64,000 nt of DNA, taken from contig LR991653.1 in the NCBI GenBank assembly GCA_905171695.1, forward strand, positions 1,146,150 through 1,210,149, in the 5' to 3' direction. Of this stretch, positions 14,231-63,109 are shown in pieces. The notes beneath the pieces were generated by a model. That model was not told the origin of the DNA. It was given only the letters and a program-made list of their open reading frames with translations, and searched no databases. The translations under genes and the position numbers were made by a program. This DNA comes from Candidatus Methanoperedenaceae archaeon GB37 (lineage in GTDB: Archaea; Halobacteriota; Methanosarcinia; Methanosarcinales; EX4572-44). Numbering within the stretch: the first letter of the stretch is position 1; each line of letters opens with the position of its first letter.

Positions 14231-14470
14231 AGCTACAAGACGATAGAGAGACTCTACTTCGGATGAAGAAGTTAAGACGGTTTTACACAATCACTCTGTT
14301 TTGTTGTTAAGAGAATAAGGAATATCTAAAGATCTCTCAGGAGACAGAACCAGTTACAGTATCACAGTAATAAAAACACTACAAGAACAAGCCCAATAAG
14401 AAAAGTGAACTACCAGCCCCTGAAGGGGCTGGTGTCCTTCCCCACCCTATATGTTTCGTGTTCCACATGT

Positions 14471-15011
14471 TCACATTGCAAAGTCGGATAGTGATGTCTG
14501 TCCTTCTTTGATTGTTTTCTGTTTCAAGCTGAAGTGCTCGTAGTCATCATCTTGCCAGTGTTTCTTTTGCTGTCGTTCGATATAGAACTGAACCATGTCG
14601 CTCGTAACGCGTCCCACTGATTCGTAGAAGTAACCGTCTGACCAGAAATGGTCTCCCCAGAGTTTTTTTGGAAACATCATTCCAACACTGTCTTCGAACA
14701 ACGTAGGATGAATATCCTTTCAGTTGTTCTGCGAGCTTGGCAGCACTATAGTTCTTGCAATCAATAACGAATACATGCATATGATCAGGTCCAAACTCTA
14801 TTGCACCTATTCGAACTTTGAGCATCCGGGCTTTGTCCCAAATAGCCGTTCGTACCACATTCTGAATCTCTTCTGATAAAAACACATCTCACCTGTATTT
14901 CGGCGTGCCTTGATTACTACGTAATCAAGGGTTGCTTACGAAGTAAGCAACCAACTGAAGGTGAAAGTTCGATCCGCCGAAACTGTGTCGAGCTGCCGCT
15001 AATCGAGTCAT
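14471..15011 (-). pseudogene. tnpA: Y1 HUH transposase TnpA, inactivated three ways
   Basis: MTRLAAARHSFGGSNFHLQ[45-bp insert]TPKYR*DVF...PDHMHVF (HUH)...frameshift in the A7 run...FWSDGYFYESVG (catalytic Tyr region). Confidence 0.88.
14908..14952. repeat. 45-bp twin-hairpin insertion within tnpA
   Basis: CCTTGATTAC-TAC-GTAATCAAGG followed by (G)GTTGCTTAC-GAA-GTAAGCAACC. Removing it restores CTT CAG TTC ACG CCG (LQFTP); no target duplication. Confidence 0.85.
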
Positions 15012-15201
15012 CCTATAGACCTCCAAAGATTTTTAAAATCCTACGCTAATACTATAACTCCCCTTGCGGGGAGCGCCGAAAATTTAGCACATAACGGTCA
15101 AGCAGACCCAATAATATGGCTTTCACTCTGTTACTAGAACCCCAATGCGACTAAACATTTCGGCATCCTGATTCATCCAGAGCCTGAAGGCTCTGGCGTT
15201 C

Positions 15202-32548: not shown

Positions 32549-33424
32549 TTATTGTAGCCAATCTTCTTTTTTCAGCAAATTAAGAATACATTCTATTTTC
32601 TTTGATTGTAATCTATAGATATTTTGAGGATTTTCGCACAAAATTTTTCTTATTTCTGAATCTCTTATAGTATTTTTATTGTCATTTCTCTTTTTAAGCT
32701 TTTTTACATCTATGTTACTTTTCACTTTTATTACAGGAATTGTTCTGCGGTTAAGAGGTAACAGAATATTATTGTAGGCTAAGAATCCAGCATCAGCCAT
32801 AATAACCTTTATTTTCCCATTTTGAGTTTCCAGATTTGATATTACTATCTCTTCCCAGATTTCCTTCTTTGGTTCGTTCTTCAACAACCGAGAAATTCGT
32901 GAGATTTATCAGAGTGTGCAGACAATATAGCCGACTTCAGAACCTCTAAGAGAATCATGGCAGAATTCTGCATCAAAAAATCCATCCTTTATCTTCTTCC
33001 CTTTCCTAAGCCTGTTTAAATCCACTATTGTTACAACCGTGGTCTCCAGTCCATAGATCTCGTCTGCTTCTTCTTTAACATTCCTTTTTATTATATTGTC
33101 TATCCTTACTTTTGTCCTGTGTGATTTCTTCCTGAAATCTTCTCAATCTTAGAATGATTTAAGCACTTTAAGCTTTAAAATGTCTCTCAACTCCATGTGG
33201 TCTCTCAGAAATGCGTAAAAGAGAATCAGAGATAACCCAAAGAAGAACCTCATAATCTCAACAATATAATATTCTATGATATAGTCGTCACACGTCTCTT
33301 TCGTCTTGAACATCCCTCTTGCCCTCTCCACAACAACCTCAGCAAACTCTAAAGCTACAAACCAAAATTCATCTTCTTCCATCTCTCCACTCTTGATCCT
33401 CTCCACCACACTTCTCAAAATCAT
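32549..33424 (-). pseudogene. Degenerate DDE (IS4/IS5-superfamily) transposase, copy 1
   Basis: Fragments include IKVIMADAGFLAY. 32686-33317 is the inverted near-identical partner of 53073-53714. Confidence 0.7.
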
Positions 33425-40032: not shown

Positions 40033-41544
40033 ATGCGATCGGTAATCATTGACGGATACGTGGACGAACCAGCATGTCTCGGCGTTCCACCCTACACATC
40101 CCCCTACCCAAGATACATCGCAGGAGCCATGATCGACGCTGGAGCAAAACCAAGAGACGTGCACTACTACACAATCGACCAGCTCCGAGCCGAACCCGGG
40201 ATCATAGGTATAATGGATCGAGCAGACCTGATCGTCGTCGTCGCTGGACTAACAGTCCCAGGCCGCTACTTGAACGCAAAACCCATAACCATCCGTGAAG
40301 TAGGAGACTTTATAGCACGCTACAATGAAAAAATCCTCGTCGGAGGACCCATACGCCTGAGCCACGAATCAGTGCTGAGAAGTGAGTATGTTGCAGAGAA
40401 AGACCTTGAAGCACGAGTCTTTGACCGCCTCACCGAGAAGAGCGAGACAGATCGCTGGCGCAGAACAAGTGAAGTCAAACGATGGAGCGTGAAAGGCGCG
40501 CAGATAATACAGAGACACCCACACTTCCCACACATCATGTGTGAGATCGAGACGTACCGCGGGTGCCCAAGAGAGAGACACTGCTCCTTCTGCACAGAAC
40601 CACTCTACCCGCACTCCTCACGAGAGATCCATGACGTGGTGGACGAAGTCAGAGCACTCTACGAGTCCGGTGCAAGATACTTCAGAATCGGAAGACAACC
40701 CGACCTCTTCAGCTACAAGAGAATCGAAACCAACAGCGGATTCAAACCAGACCCCACCGCAATAGAGAAGCTCTACAGAGGCATCAGAAGAGCCGCACCA
40801 GAACTCAAGGTGCTTCACATGGACAACCTCAATCCTGCAACCATAATAGAATACCCAGACGAATCAAGAGAGATCGCAAAGACCATCATCAAATACCACA
40901 CTCCAGGCGACGTGGCAGCAATGGGCGTTGAGAGCAGCGACCCGAGAGTGATCCGCGAGAACAACCTCCAAGTATACCCGGAAGACGTGATAAAAGCCGT
41001 TGAACTGATAAACGAAGTAGGATCCATCCGGGGTGAAAACGGACTACCAGAACTCCTACCAGGGATAAACCTTCTCTACGGCTTGAAAGGCGAGAGCAAG
41101 AGAACATATCAACACAACCTCGAACTACTCCAGCGAATACACGAGAAAGGTCTTCTACTCCGCCGAATAAACATCAGAAAGGCAATGAGATTCAAAGAGA
41201 CCCCACTCGGAGAGACCAAGGTCCACATCGAGAAGAAGCTCTTTTACCACCACAGAGAGACAATCAAACGAAGAATCGAAGTCCCGATGCTAAAAGAGAT
41301 AGCACCCAAAGGAACCATAATAAAAGAGATCCTAACCGAAGCACACCATGGCAGATTCACACTCGGACGCCAAATAGCATCCTACCCACTCCTGATAAAG
41401 ATAGAAGGGATACTGAAACTCGGGATCTTCGTGGACGCAGCAGTGACAGGGCACAGCCATCGCTCACTAACAGCCATACCGGTGGGGAGGATGCGAAATA
41501 TTGAAGTAGGATCAGAGCCAACTCACCGTCTCTCAGGATACTGA
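40033..41544 (+). CDS. Archaeal radical SAM protein (CX5CX2C) with C-terminal TRAM-like region
   Basis: DGYVDEPACLGVPPY, EIETYRGCPRERHCSFC, GRQIASYP. The last ~21 codons lie inside the rps8e-associated repeat. Confidence 0.85.
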   Translation: MRSVIIDGYVDEPACLGVPPYTSPYPRYIAGAMIDAGAKPRDVHYYTIDQLRAEPGIIGIMDRADLIVVVAGLTVPGRYLNAKPITIREVGDFIARYNEKILVGGPIRLSHESVLRSEYVAEKDLEARVFDRLTEKSETDRWRRTSEVKRWSVKGAQIIQRHPHFPHIMCEIETYRGCPRERHCSFCTEPLYPHSSREIHDVVDEVRALYESGARYFRIGRQPDLFSYKRIETNSGFKPDPTAIEKLYRGIRRAAPELKVLHMDNLNPATIIEYPDESREIAKTIIKYHTPGDVAAMGVESSDPRVIRENNLQVYPEDVIKAVELINEVGSIRGENGLPELLPGINLLYGLKGESKRTYQHNLELLQRIHEKGLLLRRINIRKAMRFKETPLGETKVHIEKKLFYHHRETIKRRIEVPMLKEIAPKGTIIKEILTEAHHGRFTLGRQIASYPLLIKIEGILKLGIFVDAAVTGHSHRSLTAIPVGRMRNIEVGSEPTHRLSGY

Positions 41545-41733
41545 AGATGAAGTGGCAGGGAATCTCTAGGCGTAAATCGACTGGTGGTCGATTGAGAAGG
41601 GCGCGTGGTGGTAAGAAGAAGTACAGGCTCCTTCGGGCAAAGATGGTGAATGTGGTGGATCGAGAGAGTGGGGTTGTCACGAGGGCAGAGATCGAGACTG
41701 TTGTGGAGAACTTGGCAAACCAGCACTATGTGA
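41477..41733 (+). repeat. Left copy of the rps8e upstream region and 5' end, with a 93-bp in-frame deletion
   Basis: Matches 44769-45118. The deletion lies between two GGCGCGTGG 9-mers (44892-44900 and 44985-44993 in the intact copy). Confidence 0.95.
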
Positions 41734-42902
41734 TGAGGAAAGGACTTGTTTTTGGTATTTTAGTAATGCTTTTCGTGGCAATGATGGCTTCTGTCGTGGC
41801 AGTTGTTGCAGATGAAGGTGAGCTTTTAGTTTCGATAAAGGGATATTCTCCATCTTTAAGCCCTGATTGGAACAAAGTGGCTTATCTTGATTCATTGGAT
41901 GATGGTGATGATTCATGGATAGAACAACTTTGGGTAATGAATATAGATGAGAGTGATTTGAAGAAATTGGATGAATGGGAACATGCTTTTGGCACAATCA
42001 CAGTCACAATAGAGGGATGGAATCCCGATGGACAGAAACTCCTTTATTCTGTTTATAATCGTGAAGATGACACAGGAAATCTCTGGGTTGTAAATTCAGA
42101 TGGAACTGGAAAGAAAAAAATAGCTGAATATGCTTCAAAACACTCTCCTGTATCACGTTGGAGTCCTGATGGAAGTAAAATAGCTTTTGAGAGCGGATAT
42201 TATGGAGAAGGTATTCTTGTTGTAAATTCTGATGGCAGTAATAAGACTCTCATAACTAGAGATGGTAGTCTGAGATATTGGACTCCTGATGGGAAAAAGA
42301 TAATTTTTTTAAAATATGATGAACATAATCACGTTTTTAACTTCTGGGAAATAGATTTAGATAGTGGCATTTCAAAGAACATATATAGTGGGGAATTCGG
42401 AATAATTAGTCCTGATAGAAGTAAGATAGCATCCCAGAACTTTCACGGTGGCAGTGGCATTTGGATTTCCGATATAGATGGAAGCAATCTAAAAGAATTA
42501 TCATATTACACTCCATCTCTGTATCCCTGCTGGAGCCCAGATAGTAAGAGAATAGCATTTATCGATGAGGGGATACATCACGGTATTTGGGTAATAAATT
42601 CGGATGGAAGCAATGAGAAAAAAGTGAAAGAAATGTCGTATGAAGATCTTACGCAAAAATTACAATCAGTTGGAGTAACAAATATCTTATTATGGAGCAA
42701 AGACGGAAGCAAGATAGCTTACGCAATGCGTGAGAATGAGACTACTAACATTTACACGATAAACGTAGACAAATCATTTTATGCAAAACCATCAGCAGGT
42801 GAAACGCCAACAGAAAAGCAACCAATGATACCTGACTTTGAAGCAGTATTTACAATCGCAGGATTGTTAGCAGTGACATATCTTATGAGAAGGAGGAAGT
42901 AA
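41733..42902 (+). CDS. TolB-like/PD40 beta-propeller surface protein with signal peptide and PGF-CTERM-like anchor; in frame with the S8e remnant from 41547
   Basis: MRKGLVFGILVMLF signal peptide, repeated WSPDGSKIAF, C-terminal PMIPDFEAVFTIAGLLAVTYLMRRRK. Confidence 0.88.
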   Translation: MRKGLVFGILVMLFVAMMASVVAVVADEGELLVSIKGYSPSLSPDWNKVAYLDSLDDGDDSWIEQLWVMNIDESDLKKLDEWEHAFGTITVTIEGWNPDGQKLLYSVYNREDDTGNLWVVNSDGTGKKKIAEYASKHSPVSRWSPDGSKIAFESGYYGEGILVVNSDGSNKTLITRDGSLRYWTPDGKKIIFLKYDEHNHVFNFWEIDLDSGISKNIYSGEFGIISPDRSKIASQNFHGGSGIWISDIDGSNLKELSYYTPSLYPCWSPDSKRIAFIDEGIHHGIWVINSDGSNEKKVKEMSYEDLTQKLQSVGVTNILLWSKDGSKIAYAMRENETTNIYTINVDKSFYAKPSAGETPTEKQPMIPDFEAVFTIAGLLAVTYLMRRRK

Positions 42903-42910
42903 AACAACGT

Positions 42911-42954
42911 GGATGCCCCACAATTCATTGCGGTGTGGCGTGGTCGGGGCTTTT
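42911..42954 (+). repeat. Inter-cassette hairpin repeat R1
   Basis: GGATGCCCCACAA-TTCA-TTGCGGTGTGGCGTGGTCGGGGCTTTT, 9 nt after the beta-propeller stop. Confidence 0.9.
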
Positions 42955-43184
42955 TATATGAAGAAGTTTTAAATATTACTATGTGGTGAATAACCATGGA
43001 TAAAAAAACTGGACCAGTGGCATGCCGAGAAGCTGAAGCATTGGGATTACTTGGCAAGTTGAAATACTGAGCAAGGCAACGAGTAAAGGAAGAGAGAGGA
43101 GAGGTGATGAATGGCTCTTTTAATGGTGTTTTTGGGGCTTTGGGTTCGAAGTGTAGTGATGGAAGGTAAGGAGAGAAGTAAAAA

Positions 43185-43406
43185 ATGAAATTCCAAGTTG
43201 TGATTGAAGAAGATTTAGAGGACGGAGGATATATTGTGCATTGTCCAGCTCTTAAAGGGTGTTGGTCACAAGGAGATACGATAGAAGAAGCGTTAGATAA
43301 CATAAAAGAGGCGATTGTCGGGTATTTAAAAACATTGAACGAGAGAGCGATGCGCGATGCTAAAAGTACAGATAAAGCTCTGATCAAAGAAGTGGCAGTG
43401 GTATAA
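43185..43406 (+). CDS. hicB: HicB-family antitoxin
   Basis: GGYIVHCPALKGCWSQGDTIEEALDNIKEAI. Confidence 0.9.
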   Translation: MKFQVVIEEDLEDGGYIVHCPALKGCWSQGDTIEEALDNIKEAIVGYLKTLNERAMRDAKSTDKALIKEVAVV

Positions 43407-43409
43407 ATT

Positions 43410-43655
43410 GTGGATAAACTTCCTCGATGGTCAGGCAAAAAGATTATCAGCGTATTTAAAAAAGACGGCTGGACTGTGGATCGCATCGAGGGAAGCCATT
43501 ATATTCTGGTAAAGGAGGGAACAGAGAAAATCTTGGTTGTACCAGTGCATGGAAATGAGCCAATAAAAGTTGGACTCCTAAAAGGGCTGATAAAAGATGC
43601 TGGACTTACAAATGAGGAGTTTTTAAGGCTTTGTTATAATAAGAGAATGGGATAG
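43410..43655 (+). CDS. hicA: HicA-family toxin (intact)
   Basis: LPRWSGKKII..F..DGW...RIEGSHYIL...VVPVH...GLLKGLIKDAGL. Confidence 0.9.
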   Translation: MDKLPRWSGKKIISVFKKDGWTVDRIEGSHYILVKEGTEKILVVPVHGNEPIKVGLLKGLIKDAGLTNEEFLRLCYNKRMG

Positions 43656-43663
43656 ATGTACTG

Positions 43664-43708
43664 GGATGCCCCGCAATTCACTGCAGGGGCGGGGTGGTCG
43701 GGGCTTTT
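43664..43708 (+). repeat. Inter-cassette hairpin repeat R2
   Basis: GGATGCCCCGCAA-TTCA-CTGCAGGGGCGGGGTGGTCGGGGCTTTT, 9 nt after the hicA stop. Confidence 0.9.
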
Positions 43709-43727
43709 AAGAATGTAGGAGGGAGAT

Positions 43728-43869
43728 ATGACATCAGGATTTGGTCAATGCCCAAAATGCGGAAATATGTCGTTAGTTGTAGTAGGGGAAGATCGAGATG
43801 AAAAAAGGAAATCTACGACGCGTATATGTCAAATGCGCTGCCTGCGGGTTTAGACGAGAACTTTATTGA
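43728..43869 (+). pseudogene. Small zinc-ribbon protein, +1 frameshift in an A6 run
   Basis: AGGAGGGAG RBS. Corrected frame MTSGFGQCPKCGNMSLVVVGEDRDEKGNLRRVYVKCAACGFRRELY (46 aa, two CxxC). Confidence 0.55.
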
Positions 43870-43947
43870 TAAAGAGCCACACATAACCACAAAGTTTGGA
43901 GGAGATAGATACTTAAGTGCTTGTAGAATATACTATTGTTGGTGAAC

Positions 43948-44187
43948 ATGACTGGGTCTAAAAAAGTCCATCTCCCTGTCCTTGTGGAGAAGGATGAGGA
44001 TGGTTTTTTTGTGGTAGAATGTCCGCTTCTTCAGGGATGCTATACGCAGGGAAAAACACTGGACGAGGCGTTAAAAAACATACACGAAGTGATTGAACTA
44101 TGTCTTGAGGAGCAGAAGGAAGAAATTGTGGAACAGCTTGACTCAATCCAGGAGTTCAGTTACCACGTCGTGTCGGTAGAGATATGA
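43948..44187 (+). CDS. hicB: HicB-family antitoxin
   Basis: EKDEDGFFVVECPLLQGCYTQGKTLDEALKNI. Confidence 0.88.
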   Translation: MTGSKKVHLPVLVEKDEDGFFVVECPLLQGCYTQGKTLDEALKNIHEVIELCLEEQKEEIVEQLDSIQEFSYHVVSVEI

Positions 44188-44415
44188 GCAGATTGCCAGT
44201 TATCTCTGGAGAAAAAGCAATTTAAATGTTTTGAAAAGCTTGATTATGTAGTCGTAAGGCAAAAGGGTAGTCATATCCGCATGAGACATAAATCTGACAA
44301 GAGCAGAAAGCCGTTAACGATTCCTAAACACAAAGTGCTTGGCAAAGGACTATTAAGAAAACTGTTAAGAGATGCTGAAATAAGCGTTGACGAGTTTAAC
44401 GAGTTGTTACGATGA
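44184..44415 (+). pseudogene. hicA: HicA-family toxin, +1 frameshift at codon 13-14
   Basis: MSRLPVISGEKAI*; with one T removed the frame continues KCFEKLDYVVVRQKGSHIRM...TIPKHKVLGKGLLRKLLRDA. Confidence 0.85.
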
Positions 44416-44434
44416 GGTTCGACAAACTAACGAG

Positions 44435-44476
44435 GGATGCCCCGCAATTCATTGTGGTGTGGCGTGGTTTGGGCTT
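44435..44476 (+). repeat. Inter-cassette hairpin repeat R3
   Basis: GGATGCCCCGCAA-TTCA-TTGTGGTGTGGCGTGGTTTGGGCTT, 20 nt after the hicA stop. Confidence 0.9.
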
Positions 44477-44490
44477 GGAGAGTGATGTAA

Positions 44491-44723
44491 ATGGAACTAT
44501 TATTTGAAAGACATGATTTTGTTTTTATGAATAAAAAAATTGATTTCCCACTTATTAAAAACAAAGTTGGAGATATAGCTCCTCGAATCATCGCAGGTGC
44601 TGCAGGAGGTTTAGTTACAGGTAACCAGTTACAGGTAACCCTGTCGCGGGAATTGTAGGATTTGTAGCAGGATATATCAGTAAAGACGCTATTCGTATAT
44701 CTACAAGTAAAGTAAAGGATTAA
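44491..44723 (+). pseudogene. Small glycine-zipper-like membrane protein frameshifted by a 14-bp duplication
   Basis: AGTTACAGGTAACC x2 at 44613-44640. Corrected 72-aa frame contains IIAGAAGGLVTGNPVAGIVGFVAGYI. Confidence 0.55.
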
Positions 44724-44838
44724 TAAATCCATTCAGAAGACATTTAGGTTTTCATACAAATGATTTTGTACCGGTGGGGAGGATGCGAAATATTGAAGTA
44801 GGATCAGAGCCAACTCATCGTCTCTGAGGTTACTGAAG

Positions 44839-45228
44839 ATGAAGTGGCAGGGAATCTCTAGGCGTAAATCGACTGGTGGTCGATTGAGAAGGGCGCGTGG
44901 CAAGAGGAAGTTTGAAGCTGGGCGTGAGGCGGCTGAGACGCACGTGGGGGCGCATGTGAAGGAGGATGTGAAGAAGGTTATAAAGGCGCGTGGTGGTACG
45001 AAGAAGTGCAGGCTCCTTCGGGCAAAGATGGTTAATGTGGTGGATCGAGAGAGTGGGGTTGTTACGAGGGCAGAGATCGAGACTGTTGTGGAGAATTTGG
45101 CAAACCAGCACTATGTGAGGCGTGATATCGTGACGAAGGGTGCTGTGATCAAGACCAGTGCGGGGATTGCTCGTGTCACAAGTAAGCCTGGCCAGGATGG
45201 TATAGTGAATGCAGTATTGATAGAATGA
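44839..45228 (+). CDS. rps8e: 30S ribosomal protein S8e (intact copy)
   Basis: RRKSTGGRL...[39 protein letters not shown]. Confidence 0.96.
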
Positions 45229-48290: not shown

Positions 48291-48456
48291 AGAGGTTGAG
48301 AAAAAGAGTTTATGAACGGTTAAAAAGAAGATGAAACATATTATGGTAGTTATTCACCCCAACCACACCCACAACAATCACATCCCCAGCCATCCACGCA
48401 TAACCCAGCACGAGCGTTATGACTGCGATCTCTGGAGTGTGTTCATTTGATATCTA

Positions 48457-48867
48457 TTATATTAGCTTCAAACTTTTCTTCGACTTTACTTTCTCATGTA
48501 ACTTTGCATCCGTAGTTAAAAGTGGCGCTTTCTCTCTTTCTGAAGCGGCTATGAAGAGGGAATCGTAGATCGTGATCTTATCCGTGATCGCGATTTCAAA
48601 AGCATCTTCGATTACTTCCTGTGAACTTATGACCCTGCACACACCAAGAATAAAATCTACACTACTTTTCAGTGCTTTTGATGCAACCTCCTTTGATTCA
48701 TTGAAGAATATCACCCTCTTCCAGGCAACGTTTGCCACTTCGGCGATCGCAAGATCAACTGTTATCAATTCGTAATTCTCTGCAACTTTTTCAGCTCTAT
48801 CAGAAGATTCTTCTCTGAAGAATATCGCCGCGATAACACCTGAATCGAGGATTACCCTATCTGGCAT
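48457..48867 (-). CDS. vapC: VapC/PIN toxin (intact)
   Basis: VILDSGVI, EVAN, IYDSLFIA, LLTTD. Confidence 0.9.
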   Translation of the reverse strand: MPDRVILDSGVIAAIFFREESSDRAEKVAENYELITVDLAIAEVANVAWKRVIFFNESKEVASKALKSSVDFILGVCRVISSQEVIEDAFEIAITDKITIYDSLFIAASEREKAPLLTTDAKLHEKVKSKKSLKLI

Positions 48868-49084
48868 CTCTATCCTCTCTAATCAGTTCAGAAGCACTCA
48901 CATCTGCTTTCATATCTTTTCTTATCTTCTTTGCCTCTGCGAGTAATCTTTCTTTACGTTTATTTTTGACCAGTTCCTCCACTACCTTTCTTATCTCCTC
49001 CTGCCAGTTTATATCTCTCATCTCTTCCATCATCTTGCGTAATTCTACCGGAACCCTTATGCTGTATACAGTTTTTGTAGACAT
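48857..49084 (-). CDS. vapB: VapB-type (RHH/CcdA-like) antitoxin
   Basis: VYSIRVP.EL..MME...INWQEEIR...LIREDRD; overlaps vapC. Confidence 0.85.
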   Translation of the reverse strand: MSTKTVYSIRVPVELRKMMEEMRDINWQEEIRKVVEELVKNKRKERLLAEAKKIRKDMKADVSASELIREDRDAR

Positions 49085-49245
49085 AATTGTATGTTTACTT
49101 TAACCGTGTATAAATGTTCTTCTGCAGATTAAACCCAAATGTGCCAGCCACATTTTCAGAAGACGAAAATCTACTCCAACGGCGGAAGCGTTATTTACTA
49201 CCGCTGAAGCAGTTTCACCAAAGCCCCATCACTGAATTATTTCTC

Positions 49246-49654
49246 TTATCCCATTAGCCAGTTCTCTATTTCCAGACCCTTTATCCTTCTAAAGTGTTTT
49301 TCATTGTCTATTGCAAGAACCATGCCTTTAACCAGACAGGACGCTGCTATAAGTATGTCGACATCCTCTATCAGTTCTCCTCTCTTCATCAACTCAGCAT
49401 AGATCTCTGAAGCTCTCTCAATAATATCTTTATCCAGCATTATTATCTTGCTTTTATCCACTAATCCTTTAAAATCCCTTATTTTCTCCTCGTTTCCTAT
49501 GTATTTCAGCCCCTGAAGTATTTCATAATAGGTGAGTATACTGAAGGCAGAGCGCATCAAATTCGTCTAAGTATGCTTCTACTTTAGCGATGACATCCCA
49601 GTTTCCTCTTAGAAAAGCTATGAGTGTGCTCGTATCTAAAAGAGACTTTTTCAT
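49246..49654 (-). pseudogene. vapC: VapC/PIN toxin, +1 frameshift near 49555
   Basis: MKKSLLDTSTLIAFLRG in one frame; SILTYYEIL...DILIAA...DNEKHF in the next. Confidence 0.85.
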
Positions 49655-49863
49655 AGTTTTAGTGCCCCACCAAAAAGATTCCTTCTTTTTACTGCCTCCT
49701 GAAATATTTTCTCTTCTTCCTCGCTCAGATCCTTCAGGATTCCTGCATATTTCAAAATATCTCGCCTCTTCTTTATCTCTATCTCAACTTCCTCCCCCTC
49801 TTTCAAATCCAGTTTCTCAAGCGGCTTCAGCACATTATCCTCATACACAGCTTTTATGATCAT
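49651..49863 (-). CDS. DUF104/AF2212-like antitoxin
   Basis: MIIKAVYEDNVLKPLEKLDLKEGEEVEI. Confidence 0.88.
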   Translation of the reverse strand: MIIKAVYEDNVLKPLEKLDLKEGEEVEIEIKKRRDILKYAGILKDLSEEEEKIFQEAVKRRNLFGGALKL

Positions 49864-50091
49864 GGAAGACACCTGTAGTTAATTGGTGATTGAAGGTTAA
49901 AAAGATGTCTACTTACCCACCACCTTCCACCCAATCCAACCCGCCATAACCCCGTTCCCTGCAGGCTTTTCCAAAAGCCCACACGGCAAAAAGCCCATCT
50001 GCGATAGGGGGCTGTCGCTTTTTGAGCGAGCCTTTCCCACCAGCGCCATCTTTTTAATCTACAATCACAAATTTATCCATGGGTGTCGGGT

Positions 50092-50280
50092 ATGATCATA
50101 AAGGCTGTGTATGAGAACAATGTCCTGAAGCCACTTGAGAAACTGGTTTTGAAAGAGGGTGAGGAAGTTGAGATTGAAGTGAAAAAGAGTCCTATTGATA
50201 GGTTGGAAAGTGTGATAAAGATCTCAAAGAGAGGATGGGTTGACGAACTCATAGAAAACCCGGATCTGGAGCCAATCTAA
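50092..50280 (+). CDS. DUF104/AF2212-like antitoxin (second, divergent copy)
   Basis: MIIKAVYENNVLKPLEKLVLKEGEEVEI. Confidence 0.88.
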   Translation: MIIKAVYENNVLKPLEKLVLKEGEEVEIEVKKSPIDRLESVIKISKRGWVDELIENPDLEPI

Positions 50281-50348
50281 TGCTAAACAAGATTGAACCC
50301 AGTACAACTGTCTTTATTGATACCAATATATTCCTTTGGTTTCCATGA
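50280..50348 (+). pseudogene. 22-codon VapC/PIN stub
   Basis: MLNKIEPSTTVFIDTNIFLWFP*. TAATG overlap with the antitoxin; its stop overlaps the glycosyltransferase ATG. Confidence 0.7.
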
Positions 50349-51305
50349 AAGTCTCGGTCGTGGTTTGTACATACACCATTGAGCTATTTCAGGACACATT
50401 AGCGTGCATAGGCTCACTTGTTAATCAAGATTACGTAGATAAAGAGATGCTTCTCGTCATGGATCGAGATGAGAAGTTGTATCAGATGTTTCTCGACACC
50501 ATTCCTGATTCTGTGAAAATATTAATTAATGAACGTCCAGGGCTTTCAGAAGCTCGGAACCTCGGGATAAAGAACGCAGAGGGGGATGTTATCGTGTTTA
50601 TAGATGATGATGCAGTTGCAGAAAAGAGTTATCTCTCAAATCTCACCAAAAACTACGAAGATGAAGATGTTGTTGGCGTTGGTGGGAAGATCTTGCCAAA
50701 GAGGAGACCGAGTTATCCAGAGGAGCTTTACTGGATCGGAGGGTTCACATATAAAGGATTTCCAGAAGAAAGATCTGAGGTTAGGAATGTGCTTGGATGC
50801 AATATGTCCTTCAGAAGAGAGGTCTTTGATAAAGTTGGTCTCTTCGACACAGAACTTGGCAGAGTTGGAAGAAAGCTTGTGACAGCAGAAGAGACCGAGT
50901 TCAGCATAAGGGTCTTGAACGCTCTACCAGACTCGAAGATCATCTACGATCCATCAGCCATCGTTTATCATAAAGTGCATGAGTATCGAGAAAATCTCAG
51001 ATACATGCTCTCTCAGATACATGCTCAGAAGAGGATACCATGAAAGCATCTCAAAGGCACAGATCAAGAGAGAGCACACCAAAGATTCCAATGATAAAAC
51101 ACTTGCAACAGAGGACAAATACCTTAGTTATCTGATTAAAAATGCAATTCCTGAGCGATTGAAGAGAGCATCGATGGGAGAAAGAGTCGCATCCAACCTG
51201 AAAGAGGTATTTATGTTGATTTCGGTGATCGGAAGTGTCGGAATCGGGTTTGTAGTAGGGAATCTAACTGTAAATACCAGAACACCCAAAACACAAGCCC
51301 AATAG
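50345..51305 (+). pseudogene. GT2 glycosyltransferase (AglG-like) frameshifted by a 16-bp duplication
   Basis: VSVVVCTY, GLSEARN, FIDDD, GCNMSFR, AEETE. TCTCAGATACATGCTC x2 at 50995-51026; removing one copy gives 314 aa. Confidence 0.88.
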
Positions 51306-51313
51306 TTGCTGAC

Positions 51314-51601
51314 ATGCGTTATCTACCCTTTAAGTCATCTTCGATCCCAAATATAATCGCAAATGTGCATGAGGATCATCTGGTCTTTGGAGAGGTGAGC
51401 AGGGTGTTAAAAGAAGACGGCACTGCAATCATAAGCGTTCCATTTACGGACGGGGTTAAACATTCTCCTTTACTTATGAATCTTCTGCACAGATTTACGC
51501 GGTTCTGGAGAATTATCCCGAAAGGATGGTTTGTGCTCAAGGACTTCATACCTGGCTGGATGTGCTGGAGGCTTGAGGAGAGACTGCCTATAGATGAGTA
51601 A
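51314..51601 (+). pseudogene. Class I SAM methyltransferase C-terminal fragment
   Basis: LPF..SS...EH-like segment and EVSRVLKEDGTAIISVP; no motif I present. Confidence 0.5.
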
Positions 51602-51677
51602 AAATAGGGATGGTGCAGTGGTGAAAGCGAGGAAGAAGGCAAGGACATATGAATTTTTAGAGGAGTTGACCGATCAA

Positions 51678-51890
51678 ATGAAGTAGAGGATCAGGGTCAC
51701 GAAGCAATTTGAGAATGGCTTCGCAAGATCAGAGAAGACGCTCAAAAAGCGAATAATCAAGCGAATTGATATGCTAAAGACCGATCCCTCTTCATCTAAA
51801 GCCTTGCATCGTGGTTTAAAGGGTAGATACAGTCGGAGAATCGGTGATTACAGGGCGACAAGCGAAATTTTTATACACTATGCTGTATGA
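51678..51890 (+). pseudogene. relE: RelE/ParE-family toxin, stop at codon 3 and truncated
   Basis: MK*RIRVTKQF...LHRGLKGRYSRRIGDYR. Confidence 0.75.
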
Positions 51891-51899
51891 GGTGATAAT

Positions 51900-52133
51900 A
51901 TGAAAACATTAAGCTACATAATCTTGCTCAGAAGAGAACCTGAGGGCGGTTATACAGTGATAGTTCCATCTCTCCCTGGCTGTGTAACCTAGGGGGACAC
52001 AATAGAAGAAGCGATAGAGATGGCAAAAGAAGCTATTGAGCTATACATAGAGAGCTTAAAGGAGCATGGCGAAGAGATACCAACAGAAGAAGGGACTTTG
52101 GAATATACTTTAACGGTAGGGGCTTATGCCTAA
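51900..52133 (+). pseudogene. hicB: HicB antitoxin with in-frame TAG at codon 31
   Basis: EPEGGYTVIVPSLPGCVT*GDTIEEAIEMAKEAI. Confidence 0.85.
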
Positions 52134-52354
52134 ACTCCTTTCTCTTACCTCCCAGAAAATTATCAAGGTGCTTGAAAAGAAGGGATTTGTTTGTATAGAT
52201 AGGATTAAGGGAAGCCATCATATTTTACTACCACCCGGAAATGAAAAGAAGAGTTGTTGTTCCTTTTCATAAAAGGGATTTACCAAAGGGAACGTTGCTT
52301 GAAATTTTAAAACAGGCAGGTATAAATAAGGAGGAGTTAAGAGAGTTACTATGA
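52126..52354 (+). pseudogene. hicA: HicA toxin, +1 frameshift
   Basis: MPKL....KIIKVLEKKGF...RIKGSHHI, then after the shift VVVPFHKRDLPKGTLLEILKQAGI. Confidence 0.85.
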
Positions 52355-52360
52355 TGAAAA

Positions 52361-52462
52361 ACTTCGCCTAACGCAGCGTATACACGGCGGGCTAACGCCC
52401 TTGCCCTTCAGGACATCCCGACTTCGTCGGGATGTCGTATATGCTGGAGACGATACACGCAA
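52361..52462 (+). repeat. attC-like imperfect palindrome downstream of the hicBA unit
   Basis: GCCTAAC (RYYYAAC) at 52366-52372; CAGCGTATAC/GTATATGCTG arm pair; perfect 11-bp hairpin GACATCCCGAC-TTC-GTCGGGATGTC (52412-52436). The right core reads GATACAC rather than GTTRRRY. Confidence 0.5.
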
Positions 52463-52828
52463 TAAACGAAGATAAGAGGAGAGTAACATCGATTGCACTG
52501 TGAAATGTGAAATGCTATTCATAGAAAGAAAGAAAGTTTATGAACGGATGGATGGTTGATAATGCAAGATGCAGTAGAGGTTATGTGGTTGAAGATCGCA
52601 TAAAAGAAAAGGGTTTGAGAAAGATGCGTGGAGATATGCTAAAGAATTGGTTATGCGTGTTATGATATGGGGTTAAGATGAGGATTATGCAGATGTAAAA
52701 GGAGGTGTTTTTGGATATGTTAAACTATAAAATGCAGTTATCCATAAAATCCCACCAGAAGCTCTATCATAATGCATGGCGAACGTGAGCAATTTATAAA
52801 TTGGGGAGATGAATTAGAGATATGACAA

Positions 52829-53072
52829 GTGGATGAAATTAAAGAAATCTTCAAAGATAACCGATTTGCACTCTCATTAACTCTTATCGCATTTACAATC
52901 TGGTTATCCTCAGTTCCACAGGCGAGAACCAATTTATTTGCAGAAGGGATAGGTGATCTCGGTCTCATTACAATTCTACCAGTAACCTATTTTATAGCGT
53001 TTTCGCTGCTCACAATCTCTTTTCTTATTGCTTTGAAGTCTGAGAAAAAGAATGAGATGTTGCTGTTTTTGC
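52829..53072 (+). pseudogene. N-terminal fragment of a multi-pass membrane protein interrupted by IS debris
   Basis: Two hydrophobic helices (…GDLGLITILPVTYFIAFSLL…); the frame runs into the IS copy at 53073. Confidence 0.45.
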
Positions 53073-54050
53073 AGGGATGTTCAAGACGAAAGAGACGTGT
53101 GACGAGTGTGACGACTATATCATAGAATATTATATTGTTGAGATTATGAGGTTCTTCTTTGGACTCTCTTCGATTCTCTTTTACGCATTTCTGAGAGACC
53201 ACGGGGAGTTGAGATACATTTTAAACCTTAAAAGTGCTTAAATCATTCTCAGATTACGAAGATTTCAGGAAGAAATCACACAGGACAAAAGTAAGGATAG
53301 ACAATATAATAAAAAGGAATGTTAAAGAAAAAGCAGACGAGATCTATGGACTGGAGACCACAGTTGTAACAGTGGATTTAAACAGGCTGAGGAAAGGGAA
53401 AAAGATGATAAAGGATGGATTTTTTGATGCAGAATTCTGCCATGATTCTCTTAGAGGTTCTGAAGTCGGCTATATTGTCTGCACACTCTGATAAATCTCA
53501 CGAATTTCTCGGTTGTTGAAGAACGAACCAAAGAAGGAAATCTGGGAAGAGATAGTAATATCAAATCTGAGAACTCAAAATGGGAAAATAAAGGTTATCA
53601 TGGCTGATGCTGGATTCTTAGCCTACAATAATATTCTGTTACCTCTTAACCTCAGAACAATTCCTCTAATAAAAGTGAAAAGTAACATAGATGTAAAAAA
53701 GCTTAAAAAGAGAATTGAAAATCATCCAGCAAACCTATTCTGGCTTGACAGCAAATACAACAAGAATCTATCAAGCTTACTTAAAGATTTCAGTTACGCA
53801 ATAAAACAAACAGTGGAAGGGATTAACAAATACGAAAAATTCACTGAAACAAGAAGCAGAATAGAATCTTTCTTCAAAATAGCATAAGGCAATATTTAGT
53901 TTGAAAGACTCGCATCTCTATTACCGCAAACATGCGATTACAGAAATAAAAACGATCTCCTATGCTACACAATTGTTCTGTCAGTTCTACTTGAAGAATA
54001 GAATAAACATGGAAAGATTTATTGAAAGAATCAAGAGAAGAAAACTCTAA
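53073..54050 (+). pseudogene. Degenerate DDE transposase, copy 2
   Basis: IKVIMADAGF and RSRIESFFK. 53073-53714 is an inverted near-identical match to 32686-33317 plus a private 9-bp duplication at 53097-53114. Confidence 0.72.
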
Positions 54051-54115
54051 TACTAATTACACTTTACTCGAATTCTTTAATTTCTATGATGAACCGTCCC
54101 AGTGGTCATTTAATT

Positions 54116-54700
54116 TTACAGAGAAACTGGAAAAAAAGAGACCCTAATATCTTTATTCTCTGTTTTAGTGTTGCATGAAATCTTTTGGGTGGATTTCATG
54201 CTCCGAAAGGTTTGATGCTCAAGTTCCAGGTCTATGTTTTTCAGTGCATCTATAGAGCCAGGGAGCTCTATCAACGATAAATTCTGGTTTCTTCTCACGC
54301 ACTTCTCTGAAGGACCTTGTAACAAGATAATTTCTGTTTGTATAAATTCTCATCATGATTAACTCGTTTTTCTCAACATCTACCGCAGAATAAGCATAGT
54401 ACGTATTTTTATCTTGCTTTAACAACTCTTTCGTCTAACGCTATCAGATATCTTCTCTTCTTCTCCGATACAAGCAAGCAATCTCTCTTCAAACTTCCCT
54501 GTTCCAAAGAGAGGTTTTAGAGACCGGACGAAGCCAGAGAGAGAACTCTAGCAGTCCTCCCGAGAGAAGACGTCTGAATACAGGTTACAATACCGGGAAT
54601 CTCAACATAGAAAAGGCACCTTATTCCTCTCAAACACCTTCAACTCTTCAACAATCTCCCTTACCCTCAGCATAAATAAAAGATAGTCTCTTGTATTTAT
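54116..54700 (-). pseudogene. IS6-family transposase remnant
   Basis: YLIALDERVVK, YAYSAVDVEKNEL...RNYL, PEFIVDRAPWL. Confidence 0.7.
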
Positions 54701-62793: not shown

Positions 62794-63109
62794 TGGCGGG
62801 ATAGCCTGGGCAATTCGACGTTGCCTGTAACCCGAAACCGTCGATATGCGGGGGGCGAAGCCAATGGAAGATATCCTGCTCCTCTGTGCCAGCCCATGAG
62901 GATAACGGTGAAGTCTCGTCCCGTGGGGATGGTGTTGCCATGAAGGGCCGCTGGAGAGTGGTTCTTCATGGCTTAATCATGGAGAACGGTTCAGGCCCGG
63001 AAGGGAGCAGACCAGCCATGAACAACCATCGCTCATGGGGCTGCGGGATGGAGAAGTCCTCTGGACCACTGGGCAGTGGAGGGGATAGCGACCTGCGGCA
63101 CTCCCGCCA
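62794..63109 (+). ncRNA. ffs: Archaeal signal recognition particle (7S) RNA
   Basis: Helix-8 signature CAGGCCCGGAAGGGAGCAG at 62992-63010; 5' TGGCGGGA pairs with 3' TCCCGCCA; TGTAA Alu-domain motif; 316 nt; AT-rich promoter-like sequence upstream. Confidence 0.92.

Follow-up and report, generated by a model that had tools for sequence, protein, structure and literature searches.

Hairpin repeats bounding exchangeable gene cassettes in anaerobic methanotrophic archaea and their association with Y1 (HUH) transposases

The 64,000-nucleotide stretch of contig LR991653.1 from Candidatus Methanoperedenaceae archaeon GB37 (assembly GCA_905171695.1; positions 1,146,150 to 1,210,149), referred to here as the window, harbours three direct copies of a hairpin repeat of about 44 nt, designated R, which are interspersed with small accessory genes, including two hicAB toxin–antitoxin modules. 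Repeats of the same family are found in other anaerobic methanotrophic (ANME) archaea, in which the gain, loss and recombination of gene cassettes fall exactly at R, and in which arrays of such cassettes typically begin just downstream of tnpA, the gene for a Y1 (HUH) transposase of the IS200/IS605 family of insertion sequences (IS). An initial annotation, made from the window alone, had proposed that the R sites are recognition ends of the TnpA type, used in trans to stack gene cassettes in the manner of an integron. Examined against related archaeal loci, this idea is partly supported: it is largely borne out, but unproven.

The repeats and cassettes of the window

All three repeats lie on the plus strand, starting at 42911, 43664 and 44435, with spacings of 753 and 771 bp. 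R1 (42911..42952) is composed of GGATG, the stem–loop CCCCACAA-TTCA-TTGCGGTG and the tail TGGCGTGGTCGGGGCTT; R2 (43664..43706) of GGATG, CCCCGCA-ATTCAC-TGC(A)GGGG and CGGGGTGGTCGGGGCTT; and R3 (44435..44476) of GGATG, CCCCGCAA-TTCA-TTGTGGTG and TGGCGTGGTTTGGGCTT. A search of the window with a 23-nt core, allowing up to three mismatches, returned exactly these three matches, with 0.00 expected from 100 shuffles. The initial annotation had called for a covariance-model search; a model built from relatives and run over the full 64 kb likewise returned R1, R2 and R3 only (65.1, 49.7 and 62.1 bits, respectively), the next match scoring 15 bits. A fourth, degenerate candidate on the minus strand at about 48340–48385, behind a PIN gene, reached only 9 bits and was dropped. 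Each repeat closely follows a stop codon, as had been described: R1 starts 8 nt after the TAA (42900–42902) of a PD40/PGF-CTERM surface-protein gene, R2 8 nt after the TAG (43653–43655) of hicA1 and R3 19 nt after the TGA (44413–44415) of a frameshifted hicA2. The private departures from a perfect stem previously ascribed to each copy are also present, namely C·T and A·C mismatches in R1, a bulged A and a 6-nt loop in R2, and G·T and C·T mismatches together with a mutated tail in R3.

Folded singly, as RNA or DNA and on either strand, R1–R3 perform no better than shuffled sequences, and for this reason the evidence for the hairpin comes from relatives only. No Rfam family matched R in the window at gathering thresholds or in ten R loci at E ≤ 1, an outer stem of the kind found in attC sites is not present in R1–R3, and the R hairpins were not called in a scan of the plus strand for intrinsic terminators.

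The genes between and around the repeats, all on the plus strand, can be read as four cassettes. Cassette 0 (41547..42902) carries the gene for a secreted PD40 β-propeller protein with a PGF-CTERM anchor (Pfam PD40, PGF-CTERM and Ribosomal_S8e); its first ~62 codons are a duplicated N-terminus of ribosomal protein S8e, and the native start of the gene is probably the ATG near 41734. Cassette 1 (42953..43663) contains a 24-codon stub open reading frame (ORF; 42996–43070), hicB1 (43185–43406) and hicA1 (43410–43655; Pfam HicB_lk_antitox and HicA_toxin), while cassette 2 (43707..44434), also annotated with Pfam, contains a small Zn-ribbon ORF (43728–43853), hicB2 (43936–44187) and a hicA2 pseudogene (44187–44415). 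Cassette 3 (44477..44768) holds a small glycine-rich membrane ORF (44491–44658) and has no closing R. The stretches of DNA between the repeats display no significant mutual similarity, and HicB1 and HicB2 share 55% identity over 40 amino acids; therefore, the units are not tandem duplicates, in agreement with the initial annotation.

A local accident, whether left over from a tandem duplication or due to a chance likeness among plain terminators, might be suspected from the presence of only three copies in 64 kb, all within 1.6 kb, and from their failure to fold better than shuffles when taken singly. This explanation is refuted by the unrelated inter-R DNA, by the existence of about 100 related loci in other orders of archaea and by the strong covariation of the stem described below, and its probability is negligible.

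The window array is a sedentary and decaying remnant of three cassettes, in which a surface-protein cassette is followed by two HicAB modules and small ORFs. The hicA2 gene carries a +1 frameshift (an extra T near 44222) relative to its counterparts in L034 and L037 (related loci and contigs are denoted by L and a number throughout), and the glycine-rich ORF is broken by a 14-bp tandem duplication (44613–44640) that is shared with L034 but is absent from L037 and L041. In a sister genome R2 and R3 are damaged further.

Occurrence and structure of the R family

An exact-core scan, in which the hairpin is fixed, of one genome per species yielded 33 loci, 29 of them archaeal and mostly single-copy, with no more than three exact-core matches per metagenome-assembled genome (MAG). 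The carriers are MAGs of ANME-1 (Methanophagales) and of ANME-2/Methanosarcinales, and near-identical cores are found in the ANME-1 and ANME-2 orders. Leaving the hairpin free in a scan of metagenomes (GGATG-N19–22-TGGCGTGGTYGGGGCT) gave 89 loci, about 70 of which possess a hairpin within the gap, built from many different stems such as CACCCGAA/TTCGGGTG, CCCCGCTT/AAGCGGGG, CCTCGGAA/TTCCGA(C)GG, CGCCGTAT/ATACGGCG and CCGGACT/AGTCCGG. The module is strand-specific, spans about 44–46 nt and consists of GGATG, a stem of 8–10 bp closed by four loop nucleotides (TTCA or TTTA, among others) and a conserved tail, TGGCGYGGNYGGGGCTT; the 3′ arm of the stem often bears a bulged base two pairs from the foot. 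Its edges are sharp, the information content falling to background directly 5′ of GGATG and 2 nt past GGGGC. Decayed and truncated copies are common, and no true R was found in viral contigs. Descriptions of R, of ANME repeats of this kind, of archaeal repetitive extragenic palindromic (REP) sequences or their associated tyrosine transposases (RAYTs), or of IS200-headed cassette arrays were not found in the literature, and the family is apparently undescribed so far.

The sequence of the R hairpin varies but its structure is kept, in line with structural selection. Across an alignment of 68 distinct variants (the minimum number present in public genomes and metagenomes of ANME-1 and ANME-2), pairing is retained in 88% of cells and compensatory changes occur in six of the eight stem pairs, with both sides changed in 82 cells against 28 expected. 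None of 500 shuffles reached the observed covariation, and sliding the pairing partner by one to three columns halved the pairing. Copies gathered with the hairpin-fixing pattern displayed no covariation in RNAalifold, because the collecting pattern had itself fixed the hairpin; by the same token, GGATG is invariant in 68/68 variants, all of which were collected and extracted with patterns that demanded GGATG.

This conservation could also serve a function at the RNA level, R being a hairpin of the 3′ untranslated region that acts in termination, in transcript processing or stability or in protein binding, travels with accessory genes and is only indirectly linked to tnpA. Such a role would agree with the fixed orientation of R towards the upstream gene, whose stop codon it follows by 8–60 nt, with a tail ending in CTT(T) and with covariation of the stem that includes some G·U pairs. 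However, the design is not that of an intrinsic terminator, since 16 G-rich nucleotides separate the stem from the T run; no Rfam family matches; and, among the non-Watson–Crick pairs, G·T is not clearly more frequent than A·C (20 versus 14). A role in RNA alone would moreover leave unexplained the breaks in synteny at both edges of R, the presence or absence of whole cassettes and the one-sided position of tnpA, which are documented in the following sections, and we regard it as improbable.

Two further conserved sequences came to light in these scans. In ANME-2/Methanosarcinales loci (L002, L006, L009, L015, L017, L020 and L027), a conserved C-rich extension of about 110 nt lies upstream of R, and its minus strand reads as a small ORF (..AFVEGGANFAYR..) with codon-like substitutions. 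Soil-type bacterial contigs (L050, L060, L094, L108, L116, L118 and L125) share a conserved look-alike, GGATGGAGCCGGGGGCGAAAAGTCGGCTGGCGTGGTCGGGGCTGCCCCC, which has both flanks of R around a different middle and for which no Rfam match was found.

Cassette boundaries and exchange at R

The position of R relative to genes was assessed for the 50 copies with at least 400 nt of sequence on either side. A co-oriented ORF ends within 400 nt upstream of 42 of them, and within 60 nt in 21 of these 42 cases; 30 also have a convergent ORF ending downstream. Where several copies share a locus, all point in the same direction (26 of 27 multi-R loci), and the intervals between them measure 0.3–4.5 kb and hold one to three forward ORFs, which begin 17–98 nt past one R and usually end about 100 nt or less from the next. 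The proteins encoded in these cassettes include HicA and HicB, DUF4258 and TIR-domain proteins, surface proteins with PGF-CTERM and β-helix regions, methyltransferases and an IS110 transposase, although most have no Pfam match. These packed and diverse accessory ORFs in co-oriented arrays support the idea, put forward in the initial annotation, of gene cassettes stacked at R.

Every unit of the window recurs elsewhere in another context, with homology breaking exactly at the edges of R, and the same R may be found with differing left and right flanks. In L036 and L040, homology to the window starts exactly at 42911, the first base of R1, and the counterpart of R1 in L036 has a different, fully compensated hairpin. 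Cassette 1 is found behind three other left contexts (L036, L040 and L038/L039); in L036 this hicBA1 cassette lies downstream of a tnpA fragment. The R2-to-R3 unit is present in L083 and L090 at 85% identity, homology being confined to 43664–44478 and both flanks being different. Homology to L101 stops at 43706, the end of R2, and that to L061, L064 and L079 at 44479, while homology to L109 starts at 44435, the start of R3, the cassette 3 unit having a different left flank there. The PGF-CTERM-encoding tail followed by R is common to the window, L038, L104 and L126, and PGF-CTERM proteins recur as cassettes elsewhere.

A further expectation of the initial annotation was the R-bounded presence or absence of cassettes among relatives. 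Three haplotypes of one locus display this: in L083 and L090 the order is X-R-[Zn-ribbon, hicB, hicA]-R-[81-amino-acid ORF]-R-Y, in L053 and L114 it is ...hicB-R-Y, with one cassette fewer, and in L098 it is X-R-Y. The forms differ precisely by the presence or absence of cassettes, and one R stands at the junction. The k-mers used for assembly (127–141, according to the contig names) exceed the length of the repeat, and two of the three haplotypes are each found on two contigs; hence, chimeric contigs are an unlikely source of the variants.

Association with a Y1 transposase

Clustering of the ORFs at R loci revealed three recurrent families: HicB, HicA and an IS200-like transposase. When only the neighbouring genes of the 29 genome loci were clustered no family recurred, the link to tnpA being seen only with the larger metagenome set. 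The R-linked transposase belongs to Pfam Y1_Tnp (PF01797), with intact HUH (DHVHLF) and tyrosine (YISGQ) motifs, and is the only recombinase family to recur among the 150 ORFs flanking R arrays. In all 17 R-centred loci that have tnpA, the gene or its fragments lie upstream of R on the same strand, a one-sidedness with a chance of about (1/4)^17 if side and strand were random. The reverse test, centred on tnpA homologues at eight independent loci, gave a concordant picture: a co-oriented R, either full or truncated at its tail, lies 0.1–1.1 kb downstream in six of the eight (L131, L135, L136, L162, L164 and L165/L166), none was found downstream in L132 or in L163, for which only 1 kb of downstream sequence is available, and none was found upstream of tnpA in any of the eight, over 3.7–10 kb. 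R arrays typically begin just downstream of tnpA.

The linked transposase has hundreds of close homologues, with many truncated or frameshifted copies and conserved, IS-like ends; full-length proteins, such as those of L135 and L131, measure 180–200 amino acids. As delimited by copy-to-copy homology, the IS measures about 0.96 kb and ends at the hairpin CCTTGTAC-TTAA-GTACGGGG, followed by TATAGTGACTT; this right-end hairpin matches R in its geometry, an 8-bp stem with a loop of 4 nt, and in its CC..GG foot. Composite arrangements are also found. In one subfamily a 45-nt spacer separates the right-end hairpin from R, and the three together make up a conserved block of about 140 nt, present both with and without tnpA; in L123, GGATG and a hairpin are joined to an IS-type tail. 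The initial annotation had drawn the same parallel from an element within the window, a frameshifted IS200-like tnpA on the minus strand (14412..15200) between hairpins CCAGAGCC..GGCTCTGG and CCAGCCCC..GGGGCTGG. Its hairpins (14412–14436 and 15177–15200) exist as described and have the 8-bp stems and TTCA loops of R, but their tnpA is only 31% identical to the R-linked TnpA and belongs to a different subfamily, so that this remnant is not of the linked type.

Two other hairpins were noted in or near tnpA genes. A solo IS right-end hairpin (ACAGGCCCCGTATCTTAAGTACGGGGTATGTGACTT) is located in the cassette region of L135 (12414–12448), about 1.9 kb downstream of the IS, and IS-type hairpins may also be scattered in arrays. 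A mini-element with an 8-bp hairpin (AACCCTTTTAGAAAAAGCGTTTACGGAAAAAYGCTTCGCA) and a length of about 45 nt interrupts the tnpA coding sequence, at positions that differ between copies, in L088 (~2320–2365) and L126 (minus strand, ~2375–2415).

The nature of the linked recombinase also bears on whether R might be an attC site, unusually short, from a true integron, or a site of another tyrosine-recombinase system, in which case the window would contain a cluster of attC sites without an integrase. The layout is indeed similar, with a weak upstream ...AAC, a spacer, a stem–loop, a second spacer and GTTGGGG, and the cassettes share a single orientation and are rich in toxin–antitoxin genes. AAC within 9 nt upstream of R is modestly enriched, at variable spacing, being present in 38% of unique left flanks versus about 11% of controls. 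Nevertheless, the left core is missing in most copies and the right core is GTYGGGG rather than GTTRRRY; the pattern of sequence conservation, which is present in the spacers of R and absent from its outer stem, is opposite to that of attC; at 44–46 nt, R is shorter than known attC sites; and no integrase family recurs in the 150 flanking ORFs. A related proposal, that R has an attC-like outer stem, was rejected, as the left flanks pair with the right arm in some subfamilies only. The main text of an IntegronFinder survey of 6718 archaeal genomes contains neither 'Halobacteri' nor 'ANME' (PMC9668308). An attC site with a tyrosine recombinase is very improbable.

Genomic setting of the array

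R1–R3 lie inside a 3.3-kb island with a GC content of about 0.40, compared with 0.50 outside, which sits in the 5′ part of rps8e; the low GC content stops at 44768. Both sides of the island carry a direct duplication of 257/350 bp (96–98% identity), comprising the 3′ end of a radical-SAM gene and the 5′ part of rps8e. The left duplicate (41477..41733, +) has an internal 93-bp deletion and marks the drop in GC content, whereas the right duplicate (44769..45118, +) runs on into the intact rps8e gene (44839–45228); a look-up of the S8e protein by exact match gave no match. The PD40/PGF-CTERM ORF is joined in frame to the left duplicate. R does not account for this bracketing, which looks as though a circle with a fragment of rps8e had integrated by a Campbell-type event.

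A second low-GC island (48296–54200) contains several toxin–antitoxin pairs (PIN/VapC-type and AF2212-like), a glycosyltransferase gene, a HicB-like gene and transposase fragments, and is missing from the sister contig L041, which departs from the window at 48295. A segment of about 350 bp, visible through matches in L034, occurs twice in inverted orientation (32964–33317 and 53073–53436) and is probably an IS fragment. Elsewhere, an archaeal-type signal recognition particle RNA is located at 62794–63109, and the 1.92-Mb chromosome LR991654.1 matches the window at 98% identity over 20 kb.

Discussion

We favour, with restrained confidence, the view that R closes the 3′ end of mobile gene cassettes in ANME archaea and that the exchange of these cassettes proceeds by recombination between R sites driven by a Y1 TnpA. 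In the proposed mechanism, TnpA would bind the R hairpin on single-stranded DNA, as it would its own IS end, and cut at a fixed distance from the hairpin, at an edge of R, after which two R sites would be rejoined. A cassette with one R could in this way leave as a circle, or enter the DNA at any other R. Such a reaction would formally resemble that between two attC sites, except that HUH chemistry would be used and the enzyme would act in trans.

Several observations weigh against this proposal. TnpA is linked to R by association, and cleavage, strand transfer and circles are putative steps. The assignment of R as a TnpA-type site, made in the initial annotation, agrees with the upstream, co-oriented Y1 TnpA and with the like geometry of the hairpins, but R lies outside the IS proper, whose homology stops at its own hairpin, and an R-like hairpin was not found at the left end of the IS. 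A unit of tnpA, ORF and R occurs in two genomic contexts (L165 and L166), but the contig ends before the right boundary. The counts of non-Watson–Crick pairs given above do not identify the active strand, and the window has no tnpA of the R-linked subfamily in its 64 kb. In the species-representative genomes, most copies of R are single, stand behind housekeeping genes and have no tnpA within a few kilobases. Finally, homologous recombination between 45-bp direct repeats could be an alternative source of the deletions.

The last two points lead to a competing explanation, in which R would be an archaeal REP-type palindrome derived from IS200 ends, with a function such as the stability of mRNA 3′ ends, and shuffling would result from homologous recombination between dispersed 45-bp repeats. 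The single copies, which often lie between convergent genes, the conserved pentanucleotide at the 5′ foot of the hairpin, reminiscent of the GTAG of REPs, the relationship of R to IS200 hairpins and the abundance of decayed and truncated copies are all in keeping with it. On the other hand, R arrays are direct rather than composed of inverted pairs, tnpA is always on one side and co-oriented, and the linked TnpA is the product of an ordinary multi-copy and often degraded IS200-type gene instead of a single domesticated RAYT flanked by inverted repeats. Moreover, the cassettes are packed as in integrons, homology breaks at both sharp edges of R and the number of copies per genome seems low. On balance we consider this explanation unlikely, while giving it more weight than any of the other alternatives.

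The same single copies qualify the comparison with integrons put forward in the initial annotation: the cassette arrays and the exchange at R agree with it, but the copies behind housekeeping genes are more reminiscent of REPs and the array of the window itself is decaying. That annotation had also considered that R might occur only singly after ordinary genes, as a plain terminator; many copies do stand singly after housekeeping genes, but arrays exist.

Taking TnpA-driven exchange at R further, the system may constitute an active platform for gene capture in ANME archaea, an integron analogue of separate origin in which a Y1 HUH enzyme stacks, excises and exchanges cassettes, also between the ANME-1 and ANME-2 orders. 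We hold this wider interpretation more tentatively, as an attractive possibility somewhat short of a probable one. If the proposed mechanism holds, it would represent a second, independent invention of cassette-based gene capture, in Archaea and with an HUH enzyme in place of a tyrosine recombinase, and would add to the known activities of IS200/IS605 transposases, which comprise the movement of their own IS and of REP elements. A concrete mechanism would likewise be at hand for the hypervariable hotspots of ANME-1, which a 2026 study found to be rich in hicAB and defence genes and described in terms of structural variants, with no repeat or enzyme (PMC13385816). In addition, a site of about 45 nt and an enzyme of about 180 amino acids might be turned into a tool for single-strand DNA recombination. 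Even if the REP-like explanation were correct, R would be the first REP-like hairpin family described in archaea. R is a practical marker of cassette boundaries in ANME metagenomes.

Comparison with known systems

R arrays resemble integrons in their co-oriented and compact cassettes, mostly of one to three genes, each with a 3′ hairpin site of conserved structure and variable sequence, in the precise gain, loss and shuffling of cassettes at these sites, in the recombinase gene that heads the array and in a content rich in toxin–antitoxin, defence and surface proteins. In contrast to integrons, they have no integrase, the gene at their head encoding a Y1 HUH transposase and being co-directional with the cassettes. 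R itself, of 44–46 nt, has single-stranded flanks conserved in sequence (GGATG and the G-rich 16-mer) and lacks the paired RYYYAAC/GTTRRRY cores; it also occurs singly after housekeeping genes, and no equivalent of attI has been defined.

With REP/RAYT systems R shares the form of a short extragenic hairpin whose stem is preceded on its 5′ side by a short conserved motif, its location at gene 3′ ends and between convergent genes, the evolutionary tie to Y1 transposases of the IS200/IS605 type and a presumed processing as single-stranded DNA. However, REPs form inverted pairs (bacterial interspersed mosaic elements, BIMEs, or REPINs), reach high copy numbers and flank a single domesticated RAYT gene, whereas R is direct and low-copy, bounds gene cassettes and has an ordinary multi-copy IS200-type tnpA on one side. 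In Archaea, a 2018 survey of Y1 proteins found typical IS200 transposases (subclass 1.1) only, the REP-associated subclasses being confined to Bacteria (PMC6006769).

The kinship with IS200/IS605 elements and their non-autonomous derivatives, the palindrome-associated transposable elements (PATEs) and miniature inverted-repeat transposable elements (MITEs), is apparent from the TnpA family (PF01797), from a hairpin built like the right end of the IS, with an 8-bp stem, a T-rich 4-nt loop and a CC..GG foot, and from the ~140-nt composite of right-end hairpin, spacer and R without tnpA, which is like a miniature derivative. Unlike the ends of these elements, R is located outside the IS, as one kind of end that is repeated, a counterpart hairpin at the left end not having been found; the DNA between copies is unrelated cargo instead of IS sequence, and no tnpB is involved.

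In IS91/ISCR elements and Helitrons, as in R arrays, an HUH enzyme is encoded at one end, a hairpin stands shortly before the 3′ end and downstream genes collect on one side. The enzymes of these elements are of the Y2 or Rep-helicase type, and flanking genes are captured when a single terminator is read through, while the R system has a small Y1 TnpA, many equivalent sites and discrete, independently exchangeable cassettes. R departs from integrons and from REP/RAYT systems in the features that define them, differs from standard IS200/IS605 ends and works like a blend of these systems.

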